A DNA stretch of 63,321 nt, counting the filler, from Rozella allomycis CSF55 (Eukaryota): NCBI GenBank assembly GCA_000442015.1. It is 11 parts of 11 records of this genome, joined end to end, with 100 filler letters (N's around TTAATTAATTAA, not from the genome) between each part and the next. Parts side by side here need not be neighbours in the genome. Positions count along the whole stretch, not along the records: positions 46,138 to 56,483 come from KE560441.1; 10 more parts are not named here. The stretch is one strand, 5' to 3'. This document shows positions 13,041-63,206 of the stretch, in pieces. The notes under the pieces are model-generated. The model worked only from the letters and a program-made list of their open reading frames with translations. It did not search any database and was not told the origin of the DNA. The stretch's first letter is position 1. The number at the start of each line of letters is the position of its first letter. Position numbers and translations under genes: made by a program.

Positions 13041-13094
13041 AATGAAATTTTAGGGAAACAGCCCAAGAGAGGAGGGAAATAGGGAAGACAAATT

Positions 13095-16417: not shown

Positions 16418-16489
16418 ATTTGCCTTGTAGAAATATTAAATAAATTTGCATATTAGCCATAACGTTATAATTAAAGAAGTTTATTTGCT

Positions 16490-17703: not shown

Positions 17704-17789
17704 TTAGGTGGCTAAGGCTGGAACTGTCAAAAAATCAATAATCGTAAAAAATTTATTTGTTTCTGAGCTTTAGCAATTCAAAATGGCGG

Positions 17790-21353: not shown

Positions 21354-21453
21354 NNNNNNNNNNNNNNNNNNNNNNNNNNNNNNNNNNNNNNNNNNNNTTA
21401 ATTAATTAANNNNNNNNNNNNNNNNNNNNNNNNNNNNNNNNNNNNNNNNNNNN
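21354..21453. other. Artificial scaffold linker N/TTAATTAATTAA/N. Others at about 32956, 34162, 36246, 37832, 39399, 46038, 56484, 57780 and 61100
   Basis: Same 100-nt spacer with stops in all six frames occurs ten times. Confidence 0.98.
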
Positions 21454-22153
21454 AAGTCCTACTGCCAAAAATGAAAAAATAAAAGAAAAGGCGAAAGAAA
21501 AAAAGATTCAAAAGAAAAAAGCCATGGGAGATCTAAAAGATCAAACTAAAGAAAGAGAACAACCAATTGTTGAACAACTGGGCAAGAGAAAGAGAATCAG
21601 ACCTTTGGAGTATTGGAGGAATGAGCGGGTTGTGTATGAAAACAGAACAATTAAAGATGTGATTGTAAAGCCAATAGAAATAGACAAACCTCAACCAAAG
21701 AAATCAAATCCTTCTTTACGGTTGAAAGGCTACAAGGAACAAAGAGATTCAATAGAATTACCAATTTTAGATTTTGAATCAAAAAAAGAAAAAGAAAAAA
21801 GTAAAATAGATTGAGAATTTTCATTTCTAGTTATCGCGTGCACAAGAGATTCAAAAGGTGCCAGAAAGATTGCAGGGGTTGGATTGAAAATAAAAAACAA
21901 TTTTGATGAAAAAAGTATGGTTTCTGGCCTTATGGTTTTTGATCCAAAGTCTGAAAAATCAAATAGCAATTCTGGTGCATTTTCAATGGTATTTTATGTT
22001 GTTTCAGGCATATTCGAAGTTTCAATTCATAAAAATACTTTCATTCTAAGCGTAGGCGGTCAATTTCACGTCCCAAGAGGAAATCAATACAAAATTAGAA
22101 ACGTCACTCAGAGAGAAGCAAAACTCTTCTTTTGTAATTGTAAATTCGATTAA
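21454..22153 (+). CDS. MIF2: Kinetochore protein CENP-C/Mif2, C-terminal part
   Basis: CENP-C motif KRKRIRPLEYWRNERVVY; cupin domain MVFYVVSG...FHVPRGNQYKIRN; short intron near 21802-21830. Confidence 0.9.
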
Positions 22154-22216
22154 TATAAAAATGATTTTAATAAACTCTTCATCTCTACTTTTCTTTCATT
22201 TGATTCCCTATACTCT

Positions 22217-23913: not shown

Positions 23914-24205
23914 TTAATTGCGGAAAGTCTGAATTCAGAAAAAAGTAGAATGTTCTTTTGAATTTTATTCTTATAATTAATTCGCATAAATGAATTAACG
24001 ATAAAAATTAACAAGCCCCTAATGATGATGATCAAGTTAATAATTCAAATTAAAGATGTGGCTGAGAGAGAGATTCGTATGAAGAAATGATAGTCAAGAG
24101 GATTGAATTATAAATTCAAATAATGTTAGCTTTCATTCAAATGACAGCAGTCAATTCCAAAAAAATTCGAGGATGCAACCATGCCACCATACCCCTGCGA
24201 TAAAA

Positions 24206-32841: not shown

Positions 32842-33055
32842 GACGTCAGTTGTAGTGTATGTATGATAGATATGATAAACGTGAATAAATTTATTTATTT
32901 ATTCATTCAACTTTTTGTCAATAAGTATCGTTATGAAAACCTAGTTCACGCGCCCNNNNNNNNNNNNNNNNNNNNNNNNNNNNNNNNNNNNNNNNNNNNT
33001 TAATTAATTAANNNNNNNNNNNNNNNNNNNNNNNNNNNNNNNNNNNNNNNNNNNN

Positions 33056-36446: not shown

Positions 36447-37058
36447 TTATTCATCGTTATCAAATCTTCTTGGCAATCTAAAATTTGGTGGCCTTCTATT
36501 CACTGGTGGAAGCTGCTGAGTTGGATCAGGAAGAGTCACACGTTGGCCGTTTCCAGTAGGATCAGGGAGAACGACATTGTGTCCATTGTTTGAGGAAGAA
36601 GAAGAAGATGCTTGACTTTGACCTTGAAATCCTCTAAGGTGCTCGGGAATTCCTTCATGGTAGGCTGCTGCATCTGGTGATCTAGCTCTTGGAAGTCTCA
36701 TGACGCCTCTTTGAGCTGGCACTTGTGGTTGGAATTCTAAAGGATTTGGTAAAGCGAAACCTGTTGGCAATGGTGCAGGTCCAGTTGGCATAGGAGGCAA
36801 TGGTGCAGCTCCAGTTGGCAATGGCAAGGGCAAAGGAGCAGATCCCATCGGAAGAGTCACTGCTGGTTCCCCATTATTAAGAGAACTAGAAGATGCTTGT
36901 GGGATTGGCAAATGGTTCTGTGCTTGTCCACGAGGTCTACGAGTGATAAGAGGAGCGTTACCAGCTGCAGCTCTACGTCCGGCATCAAATCCTGGCGGCC
37001 TATTTGGAGCAGAAGCCAAAACGATAGCAGCACCTGATAAAAGAGCGATGAATTTCAT
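36447..37058 (-). CDS. Small secreted Pro-rich protein
   Basis: MKFIALLSGAAIVLASA signal peptide; PLPTG and VTLPDPT repeats; 5' end duplicated across n 37129. Confidence 0.7.
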   Translation of the reverse strand: MKFIALLSGAAIVLASAPNRPPGFDAGRRAAAGNAPLITRRPRGQAQNHLPIPQASSSSLNNGEPAVTLPMGSAPLPLPLPTGAAPLPPMPTGPAPLPTGFALPNPLEFQPQVPAQRGVMRLPRARSPDAAAYHEGIPEHLRGFQGQSQASSSSSSNNGHNVVLPDPTGNGQRVTLPDPTQQLPPVNRRPPNFRLPRRFDNDE

Positions 37059-44839: not shown

Positions 44840-46037
44840 TTTTTTATTTATATTAAGTGTGTTCGTTTAAGAATGTTCGATTTCGAAGGTGCATTGAGTT
44901 TGTTTGCGACGGAATGTCGCAAACCTTTCATCCGATTCCTTTGCGCGGGCGACCGATGGGACGATTTCTTTAAAGAGCGATTTGATGATGATATACAGTT
45001 CTTGCAGCGGATTGAGCGAGAAGACGAATGGATCGAGCAGGATTTTCATTGTAATTGATACCGGAAGAATTTCCATTGTTTCCATTTCGGTGGCTTGGTT
45101 GTTCATTTGATTGAGTTCGATTTGCATTGGAGCTTGGTAAGTTTGGATTTTGCCACAGACCATTCCTTCTCTGACGATAACCTAGACAATGTTCATAAAT
45201 TAAACTTTTTGAGTGATAAATATGATTGTAGAATTCAATTGAGGCTTCTTGTCTATGATGATTCAATAAATAATTGATTAAATTTGATTCAGAACCCTGG
45301 TCTATAATTTCAGCGTACAAGCCTCTTAGATATTCCCCGGCACCTGAACACTCAATTGCGTGAGCACGTGATACTTCTTCATTGCACTTCTTGCACTGTT
45401 GATGACGCGTGATATTTCCGCAACGCCACCTCATGATTGTCTGTCTAACTTTTTGATCAAGATCTTTATTGGGTTTCAGCAAATGATGATGTTTTTTCTC
45501 CTGGAGCAACTTCAATGGACCCTGCAATAGTGCTTGGATAGTATGGCTCGATGTTCTCAATATGGATCATTGTAAAAATATTTAATTCTATTTTGGAGTA
45601 CATCTCCGTCGGCTTGTTGTAGTATGGAGTCAGTCTATTGAAAACATGGTTGAGTTTCTTTGCATCTCGCCAGAACTGATTCCGACTTACTATTGGTTCT
45701 TGTTTCTATCGGATAAGCCACTCAACCAGAGACGGATAACTGGAATACTCTTGTCAGTGCAATTATGAAGTTTGTCAGCGAATCTGATACTCAGGGATGC
45801 ATTTCGGAGTTCAATTTTCTCAATTAGCAGTAACTTGTGCAATGCATTAATAGATGTGCTTCTATGACCAGATACAATACGTCTAAGAATATTATTGTGT
45901 GCTTTTTGAAGAATAGATAATGCTTCTTCGGCTACCATTGTGAGGCTTAGTCCATACTTCAATTGAGGTCTTATGAATGTCTTATAAACATTCACATTTG
46001 CCGTAATTGGCCATCCAGATCCATTCAAGCCACAGGT
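44840..46037 (-). mobile_element. 3' half of a non-LTR retrotransposon (RT thumb + Cys/His finger), decayed
   Basis: VYKTFIRPQLKYGL, NNILRRIVSG..STS, CKKC...RAHAIEC; A-rich 3' end near 44840-44855. Confidence 0.85.
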
Positions 46038-46310
46038 NNNNNNNNNNNNNNNNNNNNNNNNNNNNNNNNNNNNNNNNNNNNTTAATTAATTAANNNNNNN
46101 NNNNNNNNNNNNNNNNNNNNNNNNNNNNNNNNNNNNNGACTCCCCGTCCGATTTAACGAGCACTGCGAGACTTGTTAAACGCCTCTTGCTAATATCATAA
46201 TATGTCTTCTCGAGAAAAAGAACAAATAAATATAAAAGATCATATTAAACACATTAAAGTAAAAAGGGTGTTTTTATTAATTAATAATGAGACTATTAGC
46301 CGATTATGAG

Positions 46311-48975
46311 TTATCTTAGATTAAGTGCTAATGGATCGGTTTTATGATAACCAACTTTGACAATGTTGTTGGCCGCAATATGGATTTTGAACCCACTCAA
46401 AATATCAAAACTTATTTGGTATCCACACTGCTCAACTTTACTGATTTTGTCGTAGATTGAACGAAAAGGGCTAGCATTTCTCTGATCAGAAGAAAATCCA
46501 AGCTTTATATTCTCTAATTTTGAATTCTTAATATTATCAGTAAAACGAGATAAAAAGTTGTCAAAGTACTTTAATACTCTTTCCTTTTGTTTATGTGAAG
46601 CTCCGGTAAGAGCCATATTGAACTCAAAGTTTCTTAATTGAGAATCGAAAACTTTTTCCACAATGGAAAAGTTAAACTTTTCAGAAATTCCAAAAGTTTG
46701 GATTTGTAAACTATGCAATTTTGTGTTTGGTAAATTATTAAACAAAGTGGTTAAACCCTCGCTTGATTTAGTGTAATCAAGTTAAGATTCAGAATTTTTA
46801 AATTTGAATAAAACAAAATTGTAGCCAAGTCTTGAAAATTGATTCTACCGATGTCTATTGTGAGTTCAACCATACTAGACTTTCTTAAAAATGAATGTAA
46901 ATGTGCATTATCATCAAGAACAACATTGCGCAACTTCAATCGTTGAACGTTAGAATTCAATAATGGATCCGTAACACCAACCTTACATTTCTTACTGAGG
47001 GTTACACTTAAAGACTTTAAACTCTTCCATGTCATCTTTTCAAACAATTCTTTTACAAACAAACCACAATCTTGATTTTCAATATTTAATTCTAAATTTT
47101 CAACATTGTCGAAANAGTTTATATTCAAAATTTTTAAATTTGAATAAAACAAACTTGTAGCCAAGTCTTGAAAATTGATTCTATCGATGTCTGTTGTGAG
47201 TTCTACCAAACTAGACTTTCTTAAAAATGAATGTAAATGTGCATTATCATCAAGAACAACATTGCGCAACTTCAATCGTTGAACGTTAGAATTCAATAAT
47301 GCATCCGTAACACCAACCTTACATTTCTTACTGAGGGTTACACTTAAAGACTTTAAACTCTTCCATGTCATCTTTTCAAACAATTCNATTCTTACTGAGA
47401 GTTACACTTAAAGACTTTAAACTCTTCCATGTCATCTTTTCAAACAATTCTTTTACAAACAAACCACAATCTTGATTTTCAATATTTAATTCTAAATTTT
47501 CAACATTGTCGAAAATACTCAACTTTGCAATCAAGTTTATTAATTTTTCGTCATACATTATATCAACCTTCAGTTTCAAACTTTTCAAGTGTCTTTTCAA
47601 TCGCAGCGCTTCAAATGCGTTTCCAAAATAAAAGGGAACAGAGGTTTTTAANAAGTTTCAAACTTTTCATTTTTCAAGTGCCTTTTCAACCGCAGCGCTT
47701 CAAATGCGTTTCCAAAATAAAAGGGAACAGAGGTTTTTAATGAAACTATTGTTGACGGTAAATGATGGACTAAATCTTTCAAATCTAAATTGCCATCCAG
47801 TTCTAATACTTTCAATTTTGATAATGACAGAGCTTCAAGGAATTCCCTTTGGAGTGTAGCAGGAACCCTAATAGAAAGAAAGAGCTCTTCTATGTAAGGT
47901 CGCGATAACAAATCACAAATATTTTTTAACTAGACACTTGGCAAAATTGGTTCAATAGCCAATTTTCTTATGGTTGACTTTGAAATAGCAATTAACAATC
48001 TTTTCAAACTCTCCTCGTCAGGTGTCTTGTAAGATTTGTAGGAAATGATAATTTCATGGATCCTTTTAGAATCTATTCGCTCCAAGTATTCAATGGCTCT
48101 TTCAAAAGATAGAATATTAAACCCGAGGCCAAGGGCAAACATGCCTCTCATGTCAAAAACAANAGAATCCCCTTTGGAGTTCAGCAGGAACTCTAATGGA
48201 AAGAAAGAGCTCTTCTATGAAAGGTCTCGATAACAAATCACAAATATTTTTTTAATAGACACTTGGCAAAATTGGTTCAATAGTCAATTTTCTTATGGTT
48301 GACTTTGAAATAGCAATTAACAATCTTTTCAAACTCTNCCTCGTCGGGTGGCTTGTAAGATTTGTAGGAAATGATAATTTCATGAATCCTTTTAGAATCT
48401 TTTCGCTCCAAGTATTCAATTGCCCTTTCAAAAGATAAAATATTAAACCCGAGGCCAAGGGAAAACATGCCTCTCATGTCAAAAACAACATTGGCTTTGC
48501 TATTGGGAAATTTCTCATAGAAGCTAATAATATCATCGATCTTTTGAAAATGGACTGAGAGATATCTTGATCCACTACAAAGATTGCCTTTTAAAATTGA
48601 CCTCTCAAAGGGGATGCTTATTTGATTTTCAACGTAATCTGCTTTGGGTCTTTCAAAAGCGTAATCGACTACATTTTTGTACATTTCGTAAAGTTTCCCC
48701 TTCAATGCTGGAGAAGTGATTGACAAACGACGAAAGTCTTGGAAAGATAGATAGTCACCTATACAAACGAGGGCATCATCGGGCAAATTTTCAATGTTTG
48801 TGGGAAGGTTATCAATTAATGAAGGCTCCAGTTCACTTTTTGCTTCAGTGTCAACAACGGACTCGAGTTGATTTGGTGCTTGGGGAACCAAAGCCAAAGA
48901 AGGCTCTTTGCTTGTCACAGGAACGGCGAAAACAATCGTAAGTAGTAGAAGTGTGCTAAGGAATATTTTCATCAT
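46311..48975 (-). CDS. Secreted F-box + LRR-like protein (paralog A; scrambled by assembly duplications)
   Basis: Signal peptide MMKIFLSTLLLLTIVFA; F-box IENLPDDALVCIGDYLSFQDFRRLSITSPAL; repeated LxxLxL (LKSLSV, VQRLKL, LKILNL). Confidence 0.78.
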
Positions 48976-49133
48976 TATTCAAATGAAAAATTTTAAACCA
49001 GGGTTAGACAAATAAGTAATAACGAAAATTGCTGCTAAAAAAAGTTATAAAGCAAAGTATTATTATTTAACAATTTTTAATGCACGAGGATAGTCCGCAA
49101 TCGCATATTCAGAAAGTTGTTAAGAGAATGAAT

Positions 49134-49522
49134 NAATTGCCTTTTAAAATTAAAATTGACCTCTCAAAAGGGATGCTTATTTGATTTTCAACGTAATCTG
49201 CTTTGGGTCTTTCAAAAGCGTAATCGACTACATTTTTGTACATTTCGTAAAGTTTCCCCTTCAATGCTGGAGAAGTGATTGACAAACGACGAAAGTCTTG
49301 GAAAGATAGATAGTCACCAATACAAACGAGGACATCATCGGGCAGATTTTCAATGTTTGTGGGAAGGTTATCAATTAACGCAGGCTCCTGTTCACTTTTT
49401 GCTTCAGTGTCAACAACGGAACCGAGTTGATTTGGTGCTTGGGGAACCAAAGAAGGGCTTGTCATAGGAACGGCGGAAACAATCGTAAGTAGCAGAAGTG
49501 TGCTAAGGAATATTTTCATCAT
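49134..49522 (-). CDS. Near-identical 5' copy of secreted F-box paralog A (allele or recent duplicate)
   Basis: Same signal peptide and F-box with a few substitutions and indels; bounded by n joins. Confidence 0.6.
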
Positions 49523-49619
49523 TATTCAAATGAAAACTTATTANATAATACATTTGAAGTTATTAAAAGATGAAATTTAGGTTAATTAAATTATTTATTT
49601 TGAATTAAAATGTAATTTC

Positions 49620-51695
49620 CTATTTAGTAAAAGTGAGCATCAAAATGCTTCTTTGCATATCAATAGTAAATTGAGGTAAAGGTCCCGATATGTGAATAGA
49701 GTTTAAGATGGATGTTGTTCTACTTAATAAATTCTTTTGTTCCGACTGTAGTATGTTAATTCCTTTAAATTTGATGACAGCCTTTTTAAACTGGACAGCA
49801 TCAAGGCTGTTCCCTATTTCACGAAAAAACTGAATGATGTTTTCAAAATAATTGTTGCGGATTTCAATTACATTATCCACNCTAAATTTGATGACAACCT
49901 TCTTAAACTGGACAGCATCAAGGGTATTCCCTATTTCACGAAAGAATTGAATGATGTTTTCAAAATAATTGTTGCGGATTTCAATTACAGCATCCACGTT
50001 GGTGGGAGTATAAGAGTACTCGAAATCAAGGACTACATGTTTCAGTTTAGAATGTAGAAGGATTCTCTTAATTTGAAGCAACAAATCTTTATTAGTCCAT
50101 TTGACTCTATTTATTTCAAGATGATTAACTTTTGAGTCAATTAAACTGGCAATAAAATTCTCGGTAATTTCATGAGTTGAGGAATATTCAAATATTACCA
50201 GCGAGGTTAAACTTGAAAAACGTAAATAATTGGCAAAATATTCTGGTTTGACATTCATTGATTCAAGTTCAAGCTCCTTGAGATCCTTTTTGGTCAAAAT
50301 TCTTGCTAAATCTACCTTTTCCTCTTCTGTAAGCCTGAGATTAGAAAGCTTTAGTTTCTGTAACTTTGAATTTATAATATAGTCGGTGATCAATGTAGAC
50401 ATTCTAACCTTCATATTAATTGACGNCCTAGCAAAATCTACCTTTTCATCTTCTGTAAGTCTGAGATTAGAAAGCTTTAGTTTCTGTAACTTTGAATTTA
50501 AAATATAGTCGGTGATCAATGTAGACATTCTAACCTTCATATTAATTGACGCACTTATCACATTCATTTGAGAAATGGCATTGAAAATACAGCCGTCCCT
50601 TCTAGAGATCTTTTCTGAAAAATGTAAATGATTTAGGCTTTCCAATACTTTAAAATCATCGTAGCTAAACCCGATAATTCGAGAAGCAATCAATGTCAGA
50701 CTTTCAATCCTAAATGCTTTCAGATTTTCAAAGACATCATACAGAATCAACGCACTAGTTGGCGCGTGTATTTCAATATGCTTTATAGTTGGCGGTAGGC
50801 TTCTAGATATCATTTGGAGAATCTCTGGCTTGTCGATAACTTCCGCCTTGATGTATTTAACACTTGTACTACTTAATAACTCGCTAATAAACACACAAAC
50901 ACCTTTATCTCTGCCTGATGGCTCATTCGTATCCCTCAGACCAATTTCCACTTCATTAATAGACTTTGCATATTCAAATCCACGCAACATTTCAAAATCC
51001 TCCTTCACAACTAAAAGTACTCTTGCTTTGGAATCCTTAAACCTTGTTTTAAACTTTTGAATATCGTGCAGACTAGAAAACTTTATTGTCAAAATCTCAT
51101 TAGCATATGGCAGTTCAAATTCCAACAAATCTTTACTAAAATCAATCAGAAATGTGTCATATCTCAATTCCGGATATTCAATATAAAAAGTATTTGGTTT
51201 TATAACCAAATTTTTAGTTTTATAACCTATATTGTTAAAGTATTTAGCCATCTGCCGTGGTTGCACATGAACTCGTGACTCTAAATCTTTTGAACAGGCA
51301 GCTAGTCTAAACTTTTCTTTAAGTGGCAAGAATCTAGCAACCTCGTAAAGTAGATCAGTTGGAAGATTTTCAAAACGAGATCCACTCCCTTTTTGGCCTG
51401 TCACACTACTTGGCACTTCACCTGGGTTGCGTTTATCTTCAGTTTCACTTTCAACGAGACGTGCATCTCCGGGAACTTTTTTCAAAACTTCTGCATTAAT
51501 ATTTTGAGTCTCGATAGTGAAATTGTCATTAGTATTTCCAATAATGGTAGGTCCTTCAGAATGAGAGTTCATAGCCAAACGAGTCCTAATTCTGGACCCT
51601 TTCGATTTTGAGTCGCCACAAAAAGTGGCAGAACAGGCAGAAACTAGGAGTAACGATACCAGAGACGCTGCTATGATTTCCTTTCCGTTCTTCAT
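49620..51695 (-). CDS. Secreted F-box + LRR-like protein (paralog B)
   Basis: Hydrophobic leader IIAASLVSLLLVSACSA; F-box FENLPTDLLYEVARFLPLKEKFRLAACSKDL; LQKLKL, LKELEL, LTSLVI repeats. Confidence 0.8.
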   Translation of the reverse strand: MKNGKEIIAASLVSLLLVSACSATFCGDSKSKGSRIRTRLAMNSHSEGPTIIGNTNDNFTIETQNINAEVLKKVPGDARLVESETEDKRNPGEVPSSVTGQKGSGSRFENLPTDLLYEVARFLPLKEKFRLAACSKDLESRVHVQPRQMAKYFNNIGYKTKNLVIKPNTFYIEYPELRYDTFLIDFSKDLLEFELPYANEILTIKFSSLHDIQKFKTRFKDSKARVLLVVKEDFEMLRGFEYAKSINEVEIGLRDTNEPSGRDKGVCVFISELLSSTSVKYIKAEVIDKPEILQMISRSLPPTIKHIEIHAPTSALILYDVFENLKAFRIESLTLIASRIIGFSYDDFKVLESLNHLHFSEKISRRDGCIFNAISQMNVISASINMKVRMSTLITDYILNSKLQKLKLSNLRLTEDEKVDFARXSINMKVRMSTLITDYIINSKLQKLKLSNLRLTEEEKVDLARILTKKDLKELELESMNVKPEYFANYLRFSSLTSLVIFEYSSTHEITENFIASLIDSKVNHLEINRVKWTNKDLLLQIKRILLHSKLKHVVLDFEYSYTPTNVDAVIEIRNNYFENIIQFFREIGNTLDAVQFKKVVIKFXVDNVIEIRNNYFENIIQFFREIGNSLDAVQFKKAVIKFKGINILQSEQKNLLSRTTSILNSIHISGPLPQFTIDMQRSILMLTFTK

Positions 51696-52399
51696 TGCGT
51701 GGCTGAGTGCCTTGCAAATTGCAATGAGTGAAATTATGTTACTAAATTAAAATAAATTACAAAAATTAAAATAAATTACAATAGACATTCGGCTGCTTCC
51801 AACAAATCGCCTATGGATCTCTCTGAATCTTTTGCAATAAGTCAGTAACACTTCATTTATCTGTTTTTCTTTTGTTCCATTTAGGATTAGGAAGGAATTA
51901 AAATTTGGGTAAAAAATGGATGATTGTACGCGTGAACTTTTACATACTCTCCATATTACACCTATAAACTATGTCGTTGACATTTTAAGCACCTTTAAAC
52001 GTATCACCCGTTAAATACGCATTTACACAACCTCCTTGTGGGTTATATCGCGAAGCATTGAAGTTTTTAGCTCAAATTCAAGACAAGGAATCAAACGTTA
52101 TTGGCGATCGTAGCAAGGGTAAAATAATTCAAAATAATTCAATCACATTAGAAACTATTTATTATTAGATGAAAATATAATTGATAAACAATAATACGAC
52201 GGCGCTAGATATTAAACCAATAGTTAAACCGATATTCAATAGTTTANGTTAAATACGCATTTACACCTCCTTGTGGGTTATATCGCGAAGCGTTAAAGTT
52301 TTTAGCTCAAATTCAAGACATGGAATCAAGCGTTATTGGCGATCGTAGCAAGGGTAAAATTATTCAAAATAATTCAATAAAATTAGAAACTATTTATTA

Positions 52400-55300
52400 T
52401 TAGATAAACATATAATTGATAAACAATAATGCGACGGCGCTAGATATTAAACCAATAGTTAAACCGATATTCAATAGTTTAGAGACCCGATCTTCTTTCC
52501 CGGATTCTGATTCTTCTGTAACTAATTCAGGTTCGGCAGTATCCCCGCTGATACTATTAGATAATAATAATTCACTTTCGATTGAATCTGTCTCTAAATC
52601 TGATGATTCTGAAGCTGACTCTGGTTCTGTCTCTGTCTCTAAATCTGATGATTCTGTCTCTGTCTCTAAACCTGATGATTCTGAGTCAGTTCCAGATTCT
52701 ACTTTCGTGGCTGCAATTAATTTTGGTTCATTGATCTTCTCTCTCTCAGACNTCTGAATCTGTCTCTGAATCTAAATCTGAATCTAAATCTAAATCTAAA
52801 TCTGAATCTGAATCTACATCCCCGACTGTAATTAAATTTGGTTTGTTAATCTTTTCTATTTTAGGCCTAAAAATATCTCTGAGCTTGATAACTATTGTTA
52901 CGCTATTCGACGTTTTGTAGAATAACAAAAGGTAACCCACACTGTAAAACTTTCGGATATTAGAAAACCCCCAAGACTTAAAACTTTTCACGTCAAATTT
53001 ACATTTTAATACGAATGCAATACGTTCCAATCTTGAATTTCTTAACACATCAGCTAAATCAGCTAACGGATTAAAAAACTTTTGAGCATTCGCCTGAGAA
53101 TCGTGATGACATTTAAAGCTAACTTCAAGAATTCTAAGTTTTGAGCGGGCTATGTTCTTTATTAAATTAACGTCAAATTTATCTGAAAAACAAATATTTT
53201 TTAATTCTAAATGAACCAATTCGGTTTTTGGTAAAACACTAAAGAAATTATTCAAACCTTGACTTTGATCGATTTTGGAAATTTCAGAAGACCTTCCAGA
53301 TTGAGCAAGACTCAATGATTTTAAATTTGAAAAAGACAGACTCTCTGCTAACATTTTTAAATCAACTCTTTCAATTTTAGAAGAAAATAGCACTAAATCA
53401 GGCTTTTGAATCAAAGAGTAAAATACTGGAGTGACATCCAAGTTCATTTCAACTGTCAACTTTTTTAACTTTGATTTTAAGATGCTTTTAGGAATCTCTA
53501 ATTTTTCTCTTGGAATACCATTCAATGAAAGAGAGATTTTTATATCTTCAAGTTTTGATGGAGAAAACTGTATGATTTGTTTAAGAAGCTTAGGAAAATC
53601 TGTATATTTTCGCCTATTCCAGATCGTTATTTCTAATGTTTCTTAACCCGCGAGCAATCTCAAATTCTTGAGCGTATATTCACTCGAACGGAATTTTATA
53701 TCTCTAAGGCCTAAATGTTTCAAGTTTGTTTTCACAGCCAAAGTCTTGAATATGGATCCCAAACTCTGTATGTTGATGTTAAAAAATCCCATTTTAAATG
53801 TCCTAATATTTAATGGTAACGACTCGGCAAGATGGACTAAAAGGTCCTTCCTTATAGTAGCATACTGTTCAATTTTCAACACCTCTATTTTGGACTGGGG
53901 GAGAACTTGAAAAAACTTTGACCATTGTTCATCAATATTATGATCAGCATGGGGGCGTTCACTAACGAAAATATTTAATTCTTTGAGCTGCTTGGCGCTA
54001 CTGGTAGTTATGTATTTTCCAATTAAATCCAAATAATCCATATCTTCACACATTATTTTTAAAAAGACTTTTCTAGCACCAGACTGCNCACATTCAATTT
54101 CATTTCAACGACCAACTTTTTCAACTTTGACTGTAAGATGCTTTCAGGGAGCTCCAATATGTCTCTTGGAAAACGATAAAAAAATGAAAGAGAGATTTTT
54201 AATTCCTCAAGATTTAATGGAGAAAATTGTATGATTTCTCTAAGAAGCTTACGGGCAGAATGCATTTCCCACACGTTCTGAAGTCTTAATTCTAATGTTT
54301 CTAAACCCGGAAGTAACCTCAAATTCTCAAGTGTATATTCACCATCGTCGAACATAATTCGGCCAAGGACTAAATGTTTCAAGTTTGTTTTTACAGCCAA
54401 AGCCTCAAATATGGATCCTAATCTTTCTATTTTGAGGTTAGCAAACACCATCTCAAACGCCCTAATTTCTAATGGTAGCGACTCAGCAAGTTGGACTATT
54501 AGTTCGTTTCGTAAGCTATAATAATGTTTAACATTCAGAACCTCGATTTTGAACTGGGGGATAATTTGAAAAAACTTTGACCATTGTTCATCAATATTAT
54601 TATCAACACCGCGGCGTTCACTTACGTGAATATTCAATTCTTTTAGTTGCCTTGTACTGCTAGTAGCAACGTATTTTCCAATCGAATCCAAATAGACCAT
54701 ATCTTCAAACTTTATCATAAAAAAGACTTTCCTAGCACCAGACTGCAAAACATATGGGATTAATTCGGGATAGGTAAAATAGTAATTAATGTCAAATTCA
54801 TGAATTATACCTCCACCTTGTAAAAAACTTGTCAATTTTTGAGCATCTTTTTCTTCAAACGTCGAGGGTTTATAGATAATGATCGCTTTGTTTTTTGGAA
54901 AACGCTCTTGGAACTTTATTATCCAATCAATATTATTAAATGTNAAGGCAAAATAAGATTCAAATAAATCAAAGTTAAATTCATGTATTTTACCACCACT
55001 TTGTAAAAAACTTGTCAAATTTTGGACTTCATTTTCGTCTAAAATATGGGGATCATAAATGATGGTCGCTTTGCTTTTTGGAAAACGATTCTGGAATTCT
55101 TTTAAACTTTCAATCATTTTAAAAGAAATTGAAAAATAATTTGAAAGGTAACACAGTTCATCTGGAACCTTCGAAAGCCTCATGGGCACCACGTTATCCA
55201 AAAGTTTAAGTGAAAAGTCTTCACTAAAGCCATTACGATCTCTCATCGTAGATAAAAATTCAATCATATCCTTGTAATCCTTATAAAGAATGCTTTCCCT

Positions 55301-55576
55301 AAGGATTTCCGAGCATGTTGAAAATCGATGATAATCTTTGAGAGGTAAAAATTTACCGACGCACAAGAGTAAGTCATCTGGAAGTTTCTCAATCAATGCG
55401 AGTTCGTCGTGTGATTTTACTTTTTTCCTTAGCAGGAAGTTTTTTAGTTGATGCAGGTTCCAGTTCACTTTTTCTTTCATTTTCAACCACACAGAAACCA
55501 AAGAACTTTGTTCGCTTGGCGTAGGAAGGGCGACAACAATTGTAAGTAGTACTAGTGTGCTAAGAAATATCTTCAT
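52400..55576 (-). CDS. Secreted F-box + LRR-like protein(s) (paralog C) with acidic stalk and hydrophobic C-terminus; probably a mosaic of at least 2 copies
   Basis: MKIFLSTLVLLTIVVA; F-box IEKLPDDLLLCVGKFLPLKDYHRFSTCSEIL; LRR-like repeats; DS/ES-rich tail ending LLNIGLTIGLISSAVALLFINYMFI*. Confidence 0.72.
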
Positions 55577-55854
55577 CACTATTCAAATGAAAAACTTTCT
55601 AAGCCAGGGTTGCCAGCACGAGTCAAAAACTTTTTAAGCTAGGGTTGCACGACACATTCTAAAGCCAGGGCTGAAAATTTATTTCTTTATAAATTTTGCT
55701 TTAGATTAAAACAATAAAAAAGATTTCATCTTCAGAATAGAAAATAAGAAAAATATCTTTTGCGTCTTTTTATCTCATTCCTATGCTCTTGAAGTTTTGA
55801 AGAAAAATTTACTTATTAAATAAATTTTTTTCTGGCTAACCATGATGCTTCCGG

Positions 55855-55980
55855 ATGGTTCGATCCCCATCGGTTTCCAGGTTGAGGCAAGGTTGGACTC
55901 CTTGGTGATTTTGACGATGTGGATCCCTCATCCTTTATAAATACGATTATTAAAATAATTGTATCTATTTAAAATATAAA
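55855..55980 (+). mobile_element. Second, 5'-degraded copy of the tRNA-derived SINE
   Basis: ATGGTTCGATCCCCATC...GACTCCTTGGTGATTTTGACGATGTGGATCCCTCATCC..ATAAATACGATTATT matches the reverse complement of 6475-6610. Confidence 0.8.
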
Positions 55981-56177
55981 AAGAACTTAAAAAAATTTTT
56001 GATAGCTCATATAATTCAACTAAAGAGTGCATCTTTGAGTTATGATTATTTGATAGGCATATGCCTCCACGTTTTTGCTTAACTAAAGAGTTTCTTTCTA
56101 GCGGTTGTATTCGTGTCACTCTCCATAAATAGATTTGCATGTTTATATTTAGCGCCTTCTGAATGGCAAATCATTGT

Positions 56178-56360
56178 TTAAAGTCGAACAAAACTTTGAC
56201 CATGGTACATCAATATTACCGCGGCGTCACTAACTTGAATATTCAATTCTTTGAGTTGTTTTGCGCTACTAGTAGTTATGTATTTTCCAATCGAATCTAA
56301 ATAGACCGTATCTTCAAATTTATCATAAAAAAACTTTCCTAGCACCAGACTGCAAAACAT
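56178..56360 (-). pseudogene. Internal fragment of the F-box/LRR paralog C family
   Basis: YLDSIGKYITTSSAKQLKELNI nearly identical to segments near 53980-54050 and 54630-54700. Confidence 0.75.
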
Positions 56361-56583
56361 CTACTCCAAAGAAAGAGACCATTTCATTAAAAAGTCCCAA
56401 GCCTTTAAGCCAATAACTGGAATGTGTGTGTGACAACGCAGTGTAAGTTTGCCCTAAATCATCGACAATTCCGGAAATGAAATNNNNNNNNNNNNNNNNN
56501 NNNNNNNNNNNNNNNNNNNNNNNNNNNTTAATTAATTAANNNNNNNNNNNNNNNNNNNNNNNNNNNNNNNNNNNNNNNNNNNN

Positions 56584-57779
56584 GCATGTTCCATAGAGAA
56601 AGAGAAATCGGTTACAATCGGTGATATTCAAAGGAAAAGCGTCAGACACATTAACGTCCAAAAGGGAGTGCATTGTTTTGAGTACTGTAGAAGACCGAGT
56701 TTCTTAATAACTGGAGGCAGAGATAAAATATTGTAATTAAAAAATGCGTTAGATATAGACGCCTGTGGAATCCTTATGTTCTTACCAAAAGTGCAGGAGT
56801 TCTTGAAGGTCATTTGGCACCGATTACTAATATTATTGTCTCTCATCAAGAAGGCTATATTATAAGTTTATCAGAAGACAAAAACATCAGAATATGGGAT
56901 ACACGGACGTTGTCTTGCATTCAATCTATTTGGGACAAGGCTTATACTAGACCTGAGAATTCGATTACTGCAATATTTTACGACGACAGATCAAAAAATC
57001 TGATGAGTGGAACTAACACTCTGGATATTTGGCCAGTAATCACACTTACCTATTTTAAATAACCAGATTAATAGGAATGCCAGATTTGGTACAGCACATT
57101 ATATTTATTACAGCCATGACGCCCCAATTGTGTCGGCCTTATACAATGAAGGTTTTGACCTTGTTGTTAGTGCTTGTCAAAACTCTGTGGTCAGCATTTG
57201 GAACTTTAGTTCAGGGAACAGAACCTTTAAATTTTCAAATGCACATAAAACGGAGATCACTGCTTTATGTTTTGACACGAGTGGTAGAAGATTAATTACA
57301 GGAGGCAGAGATGGTCTTGTGATTGTAATTTTACATATCTTGGGGAATTTAGATTTGGAATTTCAATAACGGCATGAACTTGCAAACGTTTCAGAAGGAC
57401 AGTAACTGTGAAGTCACCAAGATTCTTCATGTCGAGCTTGGCCAAAATAAATTTGTTTTGGTAGTCGGATGGGATAAAAGAATATCGGTTTTTGTTGACA
57501 ATCCCAATATTCCAGAGTCCAAGGCAGTCAGACATATAAGAGTTGATGGCTACGGGTCCGCTTATCGTGGTCATGAAGATGATGTTTTATCGATGGCGTT
57601 TCTACCTCCTAATAAATTAGTGACATCAGGAATCGATGGGAAGATTATCGTGTGGAATTTCAATTCAGGACACGAACGACTAATTATGCGAGAGCCACTG
57701 ATCGACGCCAAAAGCTTGGATGAACGTCCTATTGAATCAGTAATATTAAAAAATGAACATTAAAGATTGCGTTTTTAGC
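56584..57779 (+). CDS. WD40-repeat protein, WDR49/WDR64-like, partial
   Basis: KGVHCFEY...LITGGRD..LRLWNPY, GHLAPIT...SLSEDKNIRIWD, AHKTEITALCFDTSGRRLITGGRDG; short introns. Confidence 0.8.
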
Positions 57780-57879: not shown

Positions 57880-60800
57880 TTCATGTTTTTCAAAATAAAT
57901 CACTAGGTGGGTCAGATCACAGGCCAATAATTCTATCGTTCAAGCCTCAAAATAAGCACAAACATAAATCTTTTCAACGACTAAATATAAGAAACTTCAC
58001 CAAGAAAGACAATCAAGAACACTTCTCCTTGTCTCTTTCAAACTCTCTTCCTGAAATTCTTAATCTTCTGTTATCAACAAAGTCAAACAATGAACTCACC
58101 AACGACGATAAAGTGGAAGAAATGTGGTCCATCATAAAAGAATGGATCACCAATGAAGCGGTGCTAACGGTTGGTTTTAAATCTTTCAAAGCATACACCT
58201 CAGAATTCTTTTGGACCCCTGAACTTCTTCAGGAGTCTAAAGATATTGAATCCCTTACGGCCCAAGCTCAGCTAATGCAAGATAGTAACAATACTTCACA
58301 GGAAACGACACATATCTACGCCAGACTACGTTTGGCTAACGAAAGATTCAGAGACAAACTTCATCAAAGAAGAACCCAAGTGTTTCAAGAAATTGTCACA
58401 AATCTAGCTCAACCTCAAAACTCTGGAGCATTCATGCGAATGACAAAGTCAATTAAGAAACGAAAGAATAAAGATCATTGTCAGTTGGACCCGAGAGAAA
58501 TTAATGAACATATGAACTATTACAAGTCCACATTTGGCGCTGAGCCAATGGGACAATTTGAAATAGTTGATGAAACAATGGAAAAAATAAATAGTAATGT
58601 TGATTTGGGAACGATTGATGTTGTTGATAATAATAATTTATTAAATAGAAATCTAAATGAAAGAGAAAGACTTATCTTACTTGATGATGTTAAATGTCAA
58701 GCCACATCCTTAATAAATCAAATGGATTCCAACACAAAGTCAAAGATGTCCTTAATTGACAGAGTTGACGCTGTTGGTCTAAATGTTCGTTCGAATTTGA
58801 TCTCCAATAGAAATCCATTTAAAACAAATGCTCTTCATGATAACTCTTTTCAAGTTACTTCTTTTTCTAAAGATCCAATGATTTCTGACGAAGAAGTTCT
58901 TTACTTGGACCTTCCAGTAATAAATACATCTACTAACATTCATAAATTGAAATCAAACTATCCATTCTCTAATGTAAATCTATCTAAAGATGCTTGTGAT
59001 AACATAAGAATTAATGATTCTAAGCTAAGACTTCATTCAAGGTCGAAAGCTAAAGTGTCGAAAATGGAATCGTTAAAATTTAAAAGGCAGTGTGCTAATA
59101 AAGTAAATCATCAACGCGTGAGTAAAAATAAATATTCTGCTTTCGAAAATAATGCTGTCAGTTCTTTATTCAATCCTGGCTGCAATAAGAATTTTGTTTC
59201 AAAATCATACAAAACTAATTCCAAATTCAATACAAATACTTTATTTAATAGTCCTAATTTATTATCTTATAGTTCTTTACCATTTAAATTAAAAAATAGA
59301 TTAAAAAATGATAGTTCCAAAGTCGGAAATTTCGACATGCAAAAAGAAGTCCAATTGTCGTCAGAATTCATCGCTTCAAATTTTGGTAATAATATTAAAA
59401 TATGTCCTAACGATTACCCTATTTTAAATAAAGAATTGGAATACTTTGATGTTTTAGACCCAAGCCACAATAACAACAATGAACAAATCACTTCGAATTT
59501 AGAGAAAACAAAATTAATTGGAGATAATAAATTATTATTTAATTATTCTCAAGATAAAATCGCATCAAAATCGTCAAATTCTAATGTTCATAATTTCAAC
59601 TCGTTCAATCAGGATCAAATCTTGGCGGATTTTAAAAATTCAAAATTATTATTAAATGAAAAATTATTATCTAGTGATTGCCCTAATTTAAACAATGAAT
59701 CTCCATACTTTGTTTTCGACGAACCATGCCACATAAATAATAATGTTCAAAAGTTATCAGAATTAAATGGAACAAGAAATTCTTTTGATTATAAATTATT
59801 ATCTAATTATTCTTCACAAAAAATCGCTTTAAAAACAACATCTTGCAAAGTCGGAAATTTCGACCCTCAATATCTTTGCCAAAACTCGCCCAATTTCAAC
59901 GAACAAAAGAGTTTAATGAATAATAATTTATATTCTAACGACTCAAGTGGTTTAAAACACCAAAATGAATACTTAGGTTTTGGGGAGCCCAGCCACCGAG
60001 TAAACAATAGCGATATCTCAGTGAATTTTAATGATAAAAATGCAGAAAAAAATCCAGCAAGTATAATTTTCAATGCTCTTTCATCTCAAAATAATTGCAT
60101 TCAAGATTCATCAATTTTGTCAGACTCAAAATCGAAGATAGAAGCGGATGTTAATTCTTATGCATCTGAAGGGTTAAATATATTCAATCCAAATCAAATA
60201 ACAACTCTCGTTTCTGTGGAGGCTCAAAACTCACCCGTTCAAATTATGCTGAAACCTCGATCTTCAAATAATGCCTTTAAGAGTAAAAGCGACCAAGACA
60301 TTTTTAAAACAAATTTTAAAAATACTACTTACTGCAGTAGCTCCTCAAAAAGCCTTCAAACTTCTGACTTTGCTCAAACGACCTCTAAACAATATTCTTT
60401 TAATGAAAATGACAGTTCAAAAATTAAATCATCATTATTTAATATTAAAAACCGATCAAGAAACAAAAAATATTCAAGTTCTGACTCTTCTTTACCAAAA
60501 GGAATTTCCAAAATTTCAGAGTTCAAATCATTCAAAAATGCTTCAAAATCAATCGAACAAAATTCAAATAGTATTAAAAAATTAAAACAAATTAAATTAA
60601 CCTCTTTAAAACATCTTTGCCAAACCTTTGAAAAAGACTCTGAAATTTCAAAACAAAATCACAACGTGGATATTAATGACTCGAAATCTTATAATCAATC
60701 TTCAAATGAATTTAATTTTAATATTAATATTATTTCTTATTATAATCCAACTTTAAATCCATCTTCAAGCTTAAACACTTTCCAAACTCCAACGATCAAC

Positions 60801-61099
60801 ACCAATGAACTTAATTCTTCCTTAGGGCCTGAAGAAAAGCCAGAAAATAATTTAATCCACTATAATACACTTATTGAACCTCTTACCGTGCATGGATTGG
60901 ACAGTAGTAGTAGTCCTCCAGAAAACAAGATGGAAAAGGGAATAAACCAAAGACCAACGCAATCAGAAATAGGAATACTAAAAGAGAAGGGAAAAAATAA
61001 CCCAAAAACTTCAGAGTTGGCTCAAAGAAAGAAAGCCATCCTTAATGAACACATTGTCAATTCTAAATTTTCGAATCAAAACAAAAAAGGAAATTCATT
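57880..61099 (+). mobile_element. LINE ORF2 N-terminal part (APE end + linker) in frame with a long Asn/Ser/Lys-rich low-complexity ORF
   Basis: GGSDHRPII near 57906, WSIIKE, FFWTPEL, YYKSTF; after ~58570 no RT motifs in more than 800 aa. Confidence 0.6.
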
Positions 61100-61199
61100 N
61101 NNNNNNNNNNNNNNNNNNNNNNNNNNNNNNNNNNNNNNNNNNNTTAATTAATTAANNNNNNNNNNNNNNNNNNNNNNNNNNNNNNNNNNNNNNNNNNNN

Positions 61200-62432: not shown

Positions 62433-63206
62433 TTAAAAATACGGACCAAAATTGAGTAAGATTTGCAAAACTGTCTTTTCGCTTTTGACTACATGCAAAT
62501 ACCCATCGTCCCAGTCCAAATAGTTAATTCCATTTCCTGGATGAAAATCAACTTCGATTGAAGGACTACTTCCCTCCATAAGCTTGGGCTCCTTCGGCAC
62601 ATATTTGTAAGCATTTTCGAAATCATTGCAGTCGACTAATGCCGCCCAAAGTTTGCTCACTCTTTTTTTGCCCAAACAAACATTTGAATCTTTGGAGCCT
62701 AACCGGAGCGTGCTATCACCCTTATCGTAAAATCTCAAAGCCGATCTGTCGGTACATGAAACCGGGATAAAATAGGAATCTTTTTGCGCCAGGCATTGTC
62801 CACCCACTTGAACTTGGATCGAAAAATCTAATCTACGGCTGCACGGGTTTACATGGTCTCCTGACATAAGGAACCCTGGTTTGCATGTTTGGCATTTAGA
62901 GTCTGCGCAATTTTCTGTATTCATTTTTTCACATCCCCAGAAACCCCCATTCTTGCCAACCAGAAAAAAGCCTTCGTTGCAATCGGAACATAATTGATCT
63001 TTGCACCCATCTTGCGAATCCTCAACGCAAACGAACTTTTCATTGGATGTTAACATGCGTGGTACGCGGTTGTCCTTGCATGTTTTACAGTCTGCTTCCG
63101 CACAGAATGCATCGCTTGGAGATGGAGGGTTGTCGGGAAAAGCAGTTGGAAAGGCAAGCAAGTTTGAAGCTAATAGCGACACGAAAAGGAAAGATGTTTT
63201 AAACAT
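62433..63206 (-). CDS. Secreted protein: Cys-rich (CxxC, furin-like) repeats + ricin-B-lectin-like domain
   Basis: Signal peptide MFKTSFLFVSLLASNLLA; CxxxxCxxC x3; GGQCL...VSC, VCL...LVDC beta-trefoil-like pattern. Confidence 0.65.
   Translation of the reverse strand: MFKTSFLFVSLLASNLLAFPTAFPDNPPSPSDAFCAEADCKTCKDNRVPRMLTSNEKFVCVEDSQDGCKDQLCSDCNEGFFLVGKNGGFWGCEKMNTENCADSKCQTCKPGFLMSGDHVNPCSRRLDFSIQVQVGGQCLAQKDSYFIPVSCTDRSALRFYDKGDSTLRLGSKDSNVCLGKKRVSKLWAALVDCNDFENAYKYVPKEPKLMEGSSPSIEVDFHPGNGINYLDWDDGYLHVVKSEKTVLQILLNFGPYF

Follow-up and report, generated by a model that had tools for sequence, protein, structure and literature searches.

The 63,321-nt window of Rozella allomycis CSF55 DNA that we analysed (by the window we mean this whole stretch) contains several divergent paralogs in which a signal-peptide-like N-terminus is followed by an F-box and by leucine-rich repeats (LRRs). 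This architecture had been proposed in a first-pass annotation of the DNA, and it was upheld by independent lines of evidence: Pfam, hydropathy, a profile search, AF2 models with Foldseek, the ESM Atlas and docking. We consider it about an even chance that the locus is a lineage-specific tandem cluster of FBXL-type proteins that acquired a cleavable-looking signal peptide and co-opt the SCF ligase of the host. Export into the host and capture of the host SCF are plausible, and the architecture suggests them but does not prove them. We infer cleavage and secretion, access to the host cytosol, the binding of host rather than parasite Skp1, and any target.

Locus layout and assembly

Family-related sequence extends from 46311, where the stop of gene C lies, up to 56360, in a fragment of 60 codons, and is on the minus strand throughout, so the ORFs bear out the position and shared orientation first given for the paralogs. 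All six-frame ORFs of 30 aa or more in the whole window, 1005 in total, were scanned with the family HMM. Seven had E<1e-3, all within 47933-56360, and the next-best match (46754-47401, E=0.021) likewise lies inside 46311-56360.

The locus is an assembly mosaic. Of 13 single-N joins between 46 and 56.5 kb, 9 have duplicated flanks (local score at least 47), and because of them the apparent repeats are inflated. Assembly artefacts were absent from the first-pass annotation, as were the small size of the family and the eukaryotic precedents SSGP-71 and NemLGF2.

The flank upstream of gene A holds a high-copy repeat (55450-56180, no strand assigned) with a word depth of about 12000-24000, compared with roughly 100-700 across the genes. 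A second repeat of high word depth lies below gene C, at 46138-46482. A 121-base stretch of the gene A upstream flank recurs at 6446-6566 with 86% identity. We ruled out RNA genes as the content of these flanks, with 0 Rfam matches and 0 tRNAs in 45000-57000, and a Pfam scan found no family for the retroelement-like ORFs at 44970-46037 or for other unexplained ORFs. One metatranscriptome run gave three short, spurious pieces with loose ends and no real cover of the locus, and is uninformative either way.

Gene structures

Gene B (49620-51695, minus strand, 691 codons as assembled) is the sole clearly intact member and is open over its full length in two assemblies. It has a signal-peptide-like N-terminus (51624-51695), a linker of about 85 residues, an F-box (codons 108-141, 51273-51374) and an LRR domain. 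Artefactual duplication at the N joins 50426 and 49881 has added two blocks, of 41 and 39 codons, to this count. P0001, from an independent assembly, is collinear with gene B except for exactly these blocks, and X1 and X3 contigs omit 126 bases there.

The 505-aa "gene A" as read in the window is a chimera of two paralogs. Its first block (54945-55576, minus strand, 210 codons) comprises a signal-peptide-like N-terminus (codons 1-22, 55511-55576), a linker, an F-box (codons 62-97, 55286-55393) and the first LRR units; the N-terminal part of P0002, from an independent assembly, is identical to it. Between two single-N joins inside the gene sits A' (54089-54943, minus strand), 285 codons of a different paralog without an N-terminus. 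This 855-bp piece is a misplaced (mis-scaffolded) paralog fragment: P0002 runs from the first block straight to 54086 downward, bypassing A', and a contig of run X5 links 54087 to 54945, omitting 857 bases. The amino acid identity of A' to the true continuation of gene A is 63%.

That continuation begins with a second block of LRR units (53646-54086, minus strand), which is 98% identical to positions 217-365 of P0002 and ends at an in-frame TAA (53643-53645). The X5 contig has 0 differences over 53359-54087, so the TAA is present in independent data. The third block (52755-53642, minus strand) has 296 open, LRR-like codons after the TAA and an acidic D/S-rich end at the N join 52752. It is homologous to the end of A', with a dN/dS of 0.67 between them. 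The A-type C-terminal tail (52400-52750, minus strand, stop at 52400-52402) consists of an acidic S/T/D/E-rich stalk and then a hydrophobic segment of 25 residues at the very C-terminus, which by hydropathy is membrane-anchor- or GPI-signal-like. This tail opens with 34 residues that repeat, in diverged form, the end of the 52755-53642 block (15/34 identical, E=1e-5), and X1 and X3 contigs connect 52751 to 52983. A further A-type copy is represented by a fragment at 56178-56360 (minus strand; family HMM E=1.6e-10, about 37 codons matching), with 75-83% to A/A2 in tblastn.

Gene C (46311-48975, minus strand) has a signal-peptide-like N-terminus, an F-box (codons 61-91, 48703-48795) and an LRR-like remainder. 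It comes to about 625 codons once duplicated overlaps are collapsed, as the contigs do at the joins 47000 to 47401 and 47601 to 47691. An in-frame stop (48252-48254) and a frameshift (near 46778) break the window copy, but gene C is open in other contigs. The X1 contig has T>A at 48253, which changes the stop to Leu, and in X1 and X3 contigs the frame is restored by an additional base behind 46778. C' (49135-49522, minus strand) is a fragment of 129 codons with a signal-peptide-like segment and an F-box, on a piece of 409 bp that has an N join on either side. C' is near-identical to the start of gene C (89% over 133 columns in tblastn; 95% over 127 ungapped codons, dS 0.067), and X1 and X3 contigs link 49138/49123 to 49545, omitting it. 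On ploidy as a source of C versus C', the accessible part of PMC9457484 has nothing for Rozella.

The frames had at first been described as largely uninterrupted, which is partly right: it fits gene B, but not A, with its in-frame TAA, or the window copy of C, with its stop and frameshift. We rejected introns as the main explanation of the in-frame stops in A and C. Both stops fall within possible GT..AG intervals of 47-48 nt, but the splice sites are weak, and in A' the sequence homologous to the gene A interval is coding LRR sequence. We did not find intron statistics for Rozella, and the word "intron" is absent from PMC5701793.

It is possible to see the locus as a decaying, repeat-associated pseudogene cluster with no present function, in a transposon-rich and poorly assembled region. 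The TAA of gene A, confirmed in a second data set, would fit this, as would the stop and frameshift in the window copy of C, the fragments A', C' and 56178-56360, and the high-copy repeats on both flanks. We nevertheless think it very unlikely. Gene B is open in both assemblies, in other contigs gene C has Leu in place of the stop and its frame is restored, and about 410 codons stay open after the gene A TAA in sequence of 33% GC. In addition, dN/dS is 0.31-0.67 in four paralog pairs, not about 1, and the paralogs are in this way shown computationally to be under purifying selection.

Signal-peptide-like N-termini

The family N-termini (n=4) begin with MK, followed by a hydrophobic core of 14-16 residues and small residues. 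For A, B, C' and C the starts are at 55576, 51695, 49522 and 48975, and the layout rule holds by hydropathy in 4/4, in line with the signal peptides that had been claimed for the paralogs; these calls are based on Kyte-Doolittle 12-mer hydropathy and layout. The window has 25 ATG-ORFs of 150 aa or longer. Four pass the 12-mer test and three of these are family members, a rate of 3/3 for the members that are long enough versus 1/22 for other ORFs. A typical membrane span would need a longer core than these 14-16 residues. No ER-retention-like C-terminal ending was seen in the translations of B or C.

F-box proteins normally act with the Skp1 of their own cell. We therefore weighed whether these could be parasite-internal F-box proteins that sit at an internal membrane and use Rozella's own Skp1, with no host role, which we judge to be rather unlikely. 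The N-terminal segment would then be a membrane anchor, or would be untranslated with a start at a downstream Met, and to this part we give the same modest credence. Gene A does have a downstream Met, at codon 34, and the C-terminal hydrophobic segment of the A-type copy makes membrane association plausible. What speaks against it is the N-terminus itself: an MK start, a 14-16 residue core and then Pro and small residues is the layout of a signal peptide. Under the positive-inside rule, on which the orientation argument is based, this layout would put the remainder of the protein on the lumenal or outer side, apart from cytosolic parasite Skp1. Gene B also has the same layout without nucleotide similarity to A or C, and since the hydrophobic character was kept without that similarity, we argue that the segment is translated and selected. 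Between A and C, DNA identity is 82-85% over the 5' flank and signal-peptide codons, yet they are 34% identical as proteins.

F-box and predicted Skp1 docking

The F-box HMM check favored the F-boxes named in the first-pass annotation, with Pfam scores that look marginal. The gathering cut-off of PF00646 is 20.5 bits, and it was reached by 4/6 sequences (P0002 23.2 and P0003 21.8 bits, both from the independent assembly, B 21.3 and A 21.1 bits); the other two were below it (C' 19.4 and C 18.2 bits). A search of 1.84 billion proteins with the family profile gave 8 matches at E<=1e-3, two of which are from Rozella. Five of the six others align to the F-box columns of the family and one is a bacterial LRR protein; among the five, the Pfam F-box is above the cut-off in four and scores 19.2 bits in one. 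With PDB sequences as the target, the profile found no F-box protein, and the best match was the LRR protein LRRC4C (E=0.019). The ESM Atlas feature matches included F-box clusters at 0.90 (15/30), which is a lead only.

In the AF2 model of P0002, the F-box region has predicted helices at 57-63, 67-74 and 79-86 (pLDDT about 60-70). The model of a gene B segment has them at 19-26, 31-38 and 42-48 (pLDDT 62-79); the residue alignment to Skp2/COI1 is not displayed by Foldseek.

We predicted P0002 residues 55-200 in complex with a stand-in Skp1 and obtained an ipSAE of 0.78/0.79/0.78, compared with 0.01 for the best of 3 controls. In calibration, the mark was reached by 51/78 solved complexes and by 2/108 mismatched pairs. 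At least 85% of contacts recur between runs, with a partner pLDDT of at least 53. The predicted interface joins Skp1 89-152 with P0002 60-93 and 105, the span that Pfam assigns to the F-box, in the canonical mode on the C-terminal helices of Skp1. The stand-in is a plant/alga-like Skp1 from an IMG/VR contig, neither that of Allomyces nor that of Rozella, and the predictor used no alignments. The predictor may have passed this pair by remembering solved Skp1/F-box complexes, as it is a textbook one. The complex prediction that had been suggested as a check gave canonical docking at ipSAE 0.78, with a stand-in in place of host and parasite Skp1. The prediction is silent on whose Skp1 binds, a point in favor of proteins that stay inside the parasite.

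LRR domain and fold

Pfam LRR families gave no match at E<=1 in A or B. The AF2 models (pLDDT 68.7 and 61.4) have short helices and then regular beta/alpha repeats. Foldseek matched them to Skp2, COI1, D3, TIR1, FBXL17 and FBXL3, plus RanGAP and NLR LRRs, with prob 1.0 to Rna1p, Skp2, COI1 and NLR LRRs; the TM-scores are 0.3-0.4, and generic LRR proteins score equal to F-box proteins. In the Atlas, structure TM by query was 0.50-0.56 in 9 of the 10 listed rows and 0.47 in the tenth, with LRR_6-type clusters. The degenerate repeats first noticed by eye are borne out by the repeats in the models and by the ribonuclease-inhibitor (RNI)-type Foldseek matches but not by Pfam, and we assign a degenerate RNI-type LRR domain from the predicted structures only.

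Another reading is that of LRR binding proteins, similar to adhesins or receptors, that are secreted or lie at the surface, arose from an FBXL gene and do not bind Skp1 in vivo, the F-box being vestigial or a solenoid cap. Several results are in line with this: the marginal Pfam scores (below the cut-off in C and C'), the lack of an F-box match among PDB sequences, the dominance of generic LRR proteins in the fold matches, and the acidic stalk with C-terminal anchor in the A-type copy, which is a surface-protein layout. On the other side, the profile retrieves true F-box proteins from 1.84e9 sequences, the F-box span was docked by prediction on the F-box-binding helices of Skp1 (controls 0.01), and the F-box is, together with the signal peptide, the best-conserved module in A-B and A-C. 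Identity for A-B is 45% in the signal peptide and 43% in the F-box, versus 9-23% elsewhere; for A-C it is 73% and 46%, versus 24-29%. The F-box does not stand out in B-C, with 27% identity versus 24-30% in the remainder. We find surface binding without Skp1 unlikely. The conservation of these two modules in A-B and A-C fits adaptors with a constant partner and variable targets.

Family extent

The family appears to be small and Rozella-only, a size that we base on protein libraries and on the 63,321-nt window itself. We saw about 5 distinct N-termini. Three family proteins are annotated (RKP17447.1, RKP16007.1 and RKP15884.1), all from R. allomycis CSF55 and all partial "hypothetical proteins".

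We found no paper on a "secreted F-box" effector. In the accessible text, papers that mention Rozella allomycis together with an F-box (e.g. PMC4746824, PMC4928854) do not concern this family, and judged by title and abstract the papers on Rozella with LRRs and signal peptides do not either. According to the accessible part of a review (PMC6690862), James et al. 2013 proposed that Rozella has proteins that serve in protein-protein interaction, in manipulating the host and in recycling its proteins. By this paraphrase, the general idea may be partly in print there.

Proposed mechanism

In the host-SCF reading that we favor, the signal peptide would direct the proteins into the secretory pathway of the parasite. 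Soluble forms (B and C) would be released at the host-parasite interface, and the A-type form would be tethered to the parasite surface by its acidic stalk and C-terminal hydrophobic anchor. In the cytoplasm of the Allomyces host, the conserved F-box would dock on the C-terminal helices of host Skp1, and by this docking we propose that the protein would enter the host Skp1-Cul1 ligase. The divergent LRR face could then select host proteins for ubiquitination, or the proteins could merely titrate host Skp1. The Rozella plasmodium is described, in the accessible part of PMC6317583, as lying inside a compartment in the cytoplasm of the host, so a secreted protein would still need a route to the host cytosol.

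We know of no outward-facing, membrane-anchored SCF substrate receptor from any organism. A more speculative variant, which we regard as a long shot, is that at least one A-type member is not released but displayed on the naked plasma membrane of the plasmodium, and recruits the host Skp1-Cul1 ligase to the interface. Such a protein would have, in order, a signal peptide, an F-box-LRR ectodomain, an acidic stalk and, at the C-terminus, a membrane or GPI anchor. Surface adaptors could ubiquitinate host proteins or organelles locally, for example marking host cytoplasm for phagocytic uptake by the parasite or disarming host defences at the contact zone.

Comparison with known systems

Within the sister lineage of Microsporidia, Rozella is the best-studied member. 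If the host-SCF reading is true, it offers a testable handle on the molecular control of the fungal host, in which host Skp1 could serve as bait and the specificity of the LRRs could lead to host targets. There is also a warning here: the public assembly is a mosaic at this locus, and the genes are unannotated there. In the second assembly they are only partial "hypothetical proteins", and effector surveys of the whole proteome will therefore have missed the family.

Cellular FBXL proteins (Skp2, FBXL3, FBXL17, COI1/TIR1/D3) likewise have the F-box directly before an RNI-type LRR solenoid and are among the best Foldseek matches. They differ in being cytosolic or nuclear, without a signal peptide, and reach TM 0.3-0.4 and 10-16% sequence identity to the Rozella models.

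Legionella AnkB/LegU1 and Agrobacterium VirF are comparable bacterial effectors; bacterial effectors of this kind are delivered by type III (or type IV) secretion. The RipG/GALA proteins of Ralstonia solanacearum, as far as PMC4617103 is accessible, combine an F-box with LRRs that give target specificity, bind host SKP1-like proteins and are thought to redirect the host SCF. Unlike the Rozella proteins, they are bacterial and use type III secretion without a eukaryotic signal peptide, and we found no sequence relationship. NemLGF2, a large gene family of Nematocida displodere in the microsporidian sister lineage of Rozella, has a signal peptide and a RING, and the authors speculate on interaction with the host ubiquitin system (PMC4928854, accessible part). 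There the RING is C-terminal, in place of an N-terminal F-box, there are no LRRs, and the family takes up over 10% of the genes of that genome versus a handful in Rozella. Pfam scans of the members found no RING or NemLGF-type match, and no microsporidian protein is among the profile matches.

Another close likeness is to SSGP-71 of the Hessian fly (Mayetiola destructor), which has a signal peptide, an F-box and LRRs and binds host Skp (PMC4617103, again in its accessible part). It too comes from a eukaryotic parasite, is secreted, and has the same module order, with an N-terminal F-box and then about 13 degenerate LRRs; its 5' end and signal peptide are more conserved than the mature part, as in the Rozella family. 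In contrast, SSGP-71 is described as a large family versus about 5 distinct N-termini in Rozella, it is delivered in saliva to a plant whereas Rozella lives inside the cell of a fungal host, and it is described as binding host Skp where ours is docking by prediction. None of the 8 profile matches at E<=1e-3 among 1.84e9 proteins pointed to SSGP-71 (Mayetiola) or GALA/RipG homology, and the resemblance, as far as sequence comparison tells, is one of architecture and not of descent. If our reading is true, signal-peptide-bearing E3 modules that hijack host ligases arose independently as a RING in Nematocida and as an F-box in Rozella, and the same hijack arose independently as F-box-LRR in a gall midge and in bacteria.

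Assembly state of the locus

Rozella allomycis is a cryptomycete endoparasite, and its host is the water mould Allomyces. Close database relatives of the cluster ORFs number only three, all partial "hypothetical proteins" from R. allomycis CSF55, which we call P0001 (RKP17447.1), P0002 (RKP16007.1) and P0003 (RKP15884.1). They come from an independent assembly, and we compared them, together with contigs from public sequencing runs (X1, X3, X5), with the window.

Assembly of the region is poor: 13 single-N joins fall within 47115–54944. Comparing the flanks of these joins across the cluster region, we found mutually repeating flanks (local score of at least 47) at nine of them, which marks uncollapsed contig overlaps, so an ORF that crosses such a join gains an artificial internal repeat. 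P0001 is collinear with ORF B save for two blocks, 41 and 39 residues long, located exactly at joins 50426 and 49881; contigs of other public runs skip these stretches as well. Because the duplicated join flanks are missing from P0001 and from the other contigs, part of the impression of repeats in the raw sequence is an artefact. The first-pass annotation had described a cluster of divergent, co-oriented genes here; that observation holds and goes well beyond chance, though assembly artefacts had distorted it.

Direct duplications of about 60–240 bases also flank many single-N joins across the window (for example 7961, 18654, 37129, 43304 and 61738). The fillers between joined records keep a constant pattern of 44 N, 12 bases and 44 N (21354–21453, 32956–33055, 46038–46137, 56484–56583 and others). 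Elsewhere, a PX-domain phospholipase D at 13920–16417 (plus strand) is split into ORFs of 389 and 388 codons with about 160 bases between them; an intron could explain the split, or a break in the assembly.

Genes of the cluster

All family members lie on the minus strand. Gene B (51695–49620) is the only clearly intact one, with about 610 codons after subtraction of the two artefactual blocks. Gene A starts at 55576, and the 505-codon ORF seen in the window is a chimera: both P0002 and an X5 contig join 54945 straight to 54087/54086 and skip 54089–54943, a stretch of minus-strand sequence (A') that is a fragment of another paralog lodged within gene A. Gene A has an in-frame TAA at 53643–53645, which the X5 contig shows too (0 differences), and 296 more open codons follow downstream of it. 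Past join 52752 there is an A-type tail of 116 codons, the start of which is a diverged copy of the end of the preceding ORF (15 of 34 residues identical, E=1e-5).

Gene C (48975–46311) comes to about 625 codons when collapsed, and its copy in the window contains a single in-frame stop and a single frameshift. In the X1 contig the stop codon reads as Leu (48253 T>A), and an extra base behind 46778 restores the frame in the X1 and X3 contigs. A second copy of its start, C' (49522–49135), is near-identical to it (95% over 127 codons, dS 0.067) and occupies a 409-bp piece; since the X1 and X3 contigs skip this piece, C' could represent either an allele or a recent duplication.

Family HMM and sequence match place a short A-type fragment at 56178–56360. 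The family HMM matched seven of the 1005 ORFs in the window (E<1e-3), all within 47933–56360, and found no other members anywhere in the window. P0003 has no exact match to any piece of the window, the best being 80% across its final 102 residues, which means that the family has at least one further copy.

F-box and LRR domains

The F-box that had been read from a motif alone is borne out by Pfam, with positions 1 to about 35 of the PF00646 model aligning at the same place in every family member. Against a cut-off of 20.5 bits, B (21.3), A (21.1), P0002 (23.2) and P0003 (21.8) score above, and C' (19.4) and C (18.2) score below. Searching 1.84 billion representative proteins with the family profile gave only eight matches at E<=1e-3: two were from Rozella, five (insect, mite, plant and two metagenomic proteins) fell on the F-box columns of the family, and one was a bacterial BspA-type LRR protein. 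Four of the five F-box-column matches have a Pfam F-box above cut-off, and the fifth scores 19.2 bits. The feature neighbours of the family in the ESM Atlas are F-box clusters, at a score (0.90) where chance matches still occur and which counts as a lead only. The family profile found no F-box proteins among PDB sequences.

The repeats had been called degenerate, which is apt because A and B have no Pfam LRR family at E<=1. We modelled P0002 (8-row alignment, pLDDT 68.7, pTM 0.63) and residues 95–423 of B (7 rows, pLDDT 61.4, pTM 0.59) with AlphaFold2. In the models the signal peptide and linker are disordered; a cluster of short helices covers the Pfam F-box span, and regular strand/helix repeats follow. 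Foldseek matched them in the PDB to RNI-type LRR proteins (E of about 1e-4 to 1e-2, TM 0.3–0.4), among them the F-box receptors Skp2, COI1, D3, TIR1, FBXL17 and FBXL3, alongside RanGAP and NLR proteins. The predicted folds support an architecture of F-box plus RNI-like LRR, although Foldseek alone does not single out F-box proteins.

Predicted docking to Skp1

As a stand-in for Skp1 we used a complete 154-residue ORF from an IMG/VR contig (L005:2263–2727), which is neither the host nor the parasite Skp1. Its JGI name is "S-phase kinase-associated protein 1" and it has the Pfam Skp1 domains. In complex with P0002 residues 55–200 it gave ipSAE values of 0.78, 0.79 and 0.78, compared with 0.01 for the best of three controls, with contact agreement of at least 85% and partner pLDDT of at least 53. 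In the calibration of the predictor, 51 of 78 solved complexes reached the mark used here, as did 2 of 108 mismatched pairs, and a textbook Skp1/F-box pair can pass it from predictor memory. The confident interface joins Skp1 89–152, the F-box-binding helices, to P0002 60–93 and 105, the Pfam F-box span. The model shows that the P0002 segment is F-box-like enough for canonical docking; binding itself, and whose Skp1, are not implied. It is quite improbable that these are surface LRR proteins in which the F-box is vestigial, a reading that would suit the scores of C and C' better than the predicted docking.

The Skp1 motif pattern also matches four other IMG/VR "viral" contigs (L001–L004, 1.8–2.5 Mb), and the L003 copy appears to be interrupted after about 150 codons.

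Putative signal peptide

All four N-termini of the family begin with MK(+), followed by a hydrophobic core of 14–16 residues and then Pro and small residues, a layout that suggests cleavage. We applied a simple hydropathy rule, a 12-residue Kyte-Doolittle threshold, to the 25 long ORFs of the window. Four passed; three were family members, and one came from the 22 others. Gene B keeps the layout with no nucleotide similarity to A or C. The DNA of A and C is 82–85% identical over the 5' flank and signal-peptide codons, against an identity of 34% between the proteins. The DNA conserved at this level among A, C and C' (55495–55611, 48891–49005 and 49457–49536) takes in about 45 bases of flank ahead of the ATG; a shared promoter or leader could account for it, or 5'-end gene conversion.

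By hydropathy, the A-type tail continues with an acidic stretch rich in S/T/D/E and ends, right at the C-terminus, with a hydrophobic segment of 25 residues. Such a segment would fit a membrane-bound F-box protein that stays inside the parasite, which we think unlikely given an N-terminal layout suggestive of cleavage.

Signal-peptide-like N-termini also occur on two minus-strand ORFs of about 200–260 codons, at 36447–37058 and 62433–63206. Neither has a Pfam family or any kinship with the F-box family, and both are possibly other secreted proteins.

Evolution and flanking sequence

Module by module, conservation between paralogs is highest in the signal peptide and the F-box, the F-box of B and C being the exception. 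A and B are 45% identical in the signal peptide, 43% in the F-box and 9–23% elsewhere; for A and C the values are 73%, 46% and 24–29%. The F-box of B and C, at 27%, does not stand out. Nei-Gojobori dN/dS was 0.33 for C/C', 0.47 for A/C, and 0.31 and 0.67 for the two A'/A blocks, values that mean somewhat relaxed purifying selection and not neutral decay. A decaying gene cluster, which the in-frame stops and fragments might bring to mind, is very doubtful next to these ratios.

High-copy repeats bracket the cluster at 46138–46482 and 55798–56142, with a word depth 20–100x that of neighbouring genes in three DNA runs; we found no Rfam family or tRNA in them. A 121-base part of the repeat recurs at 6446–6566. 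Just below gene C, ORFs at 44970–46085 (minus strand) resemble a retroelement polyprotein in its C-terminal part, and no Pfam family was found in the two that were tested. Elsewhere in the window, 58122–61151 (plus strand) holds a 1009-codon ORF, very rich in low-complexity Asn/Ser/Lys stretches, that runs into a gap.

Interpretation and comparison with known systems

The most economical reading is that an FBXL-type gene gained a signal peptide and then diversified locally. The constant module would bind Skp1, and target binding would fall to the variable LRR module. The plasmodium of Rozella has no wall; it lies within the host cytoplasm and phagocytoses it (PMC6317583). Because of this, and because a secreted F-box meets Skp1 only in the cytoplasm of another cell, host Skp1-Cul1 is the obvious, putative partner. 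The same source describes the plasmodium as within a compartment, so a route into the host cytosol is still needed. We regard an effector role as reasonable but unproven.

In the literature library that we searched there was no paper on the Rozella family; James et al. 2013 or the supplements to it may touch on the general idea, judging from a review (PMC6690862). Functionally, the closest systems are Hessian-fly SSGP-71, which is secreted, has an F-box and LRRs and binds host Skp, and Ralstonia RipG/GALA (both from PMC4617103). The nearest counterpart from the sister lineage is NemLGF2 of Nematocida displodere, a family with a signal peptide and RING (PMC4928854). The profile search of the 1.84 billion proteins found no sequence kinship to SSGP-71, RipG/GALA or NemLGF2. 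The Rozella family is a new instance of a known strategy, apparently independent of these systems.
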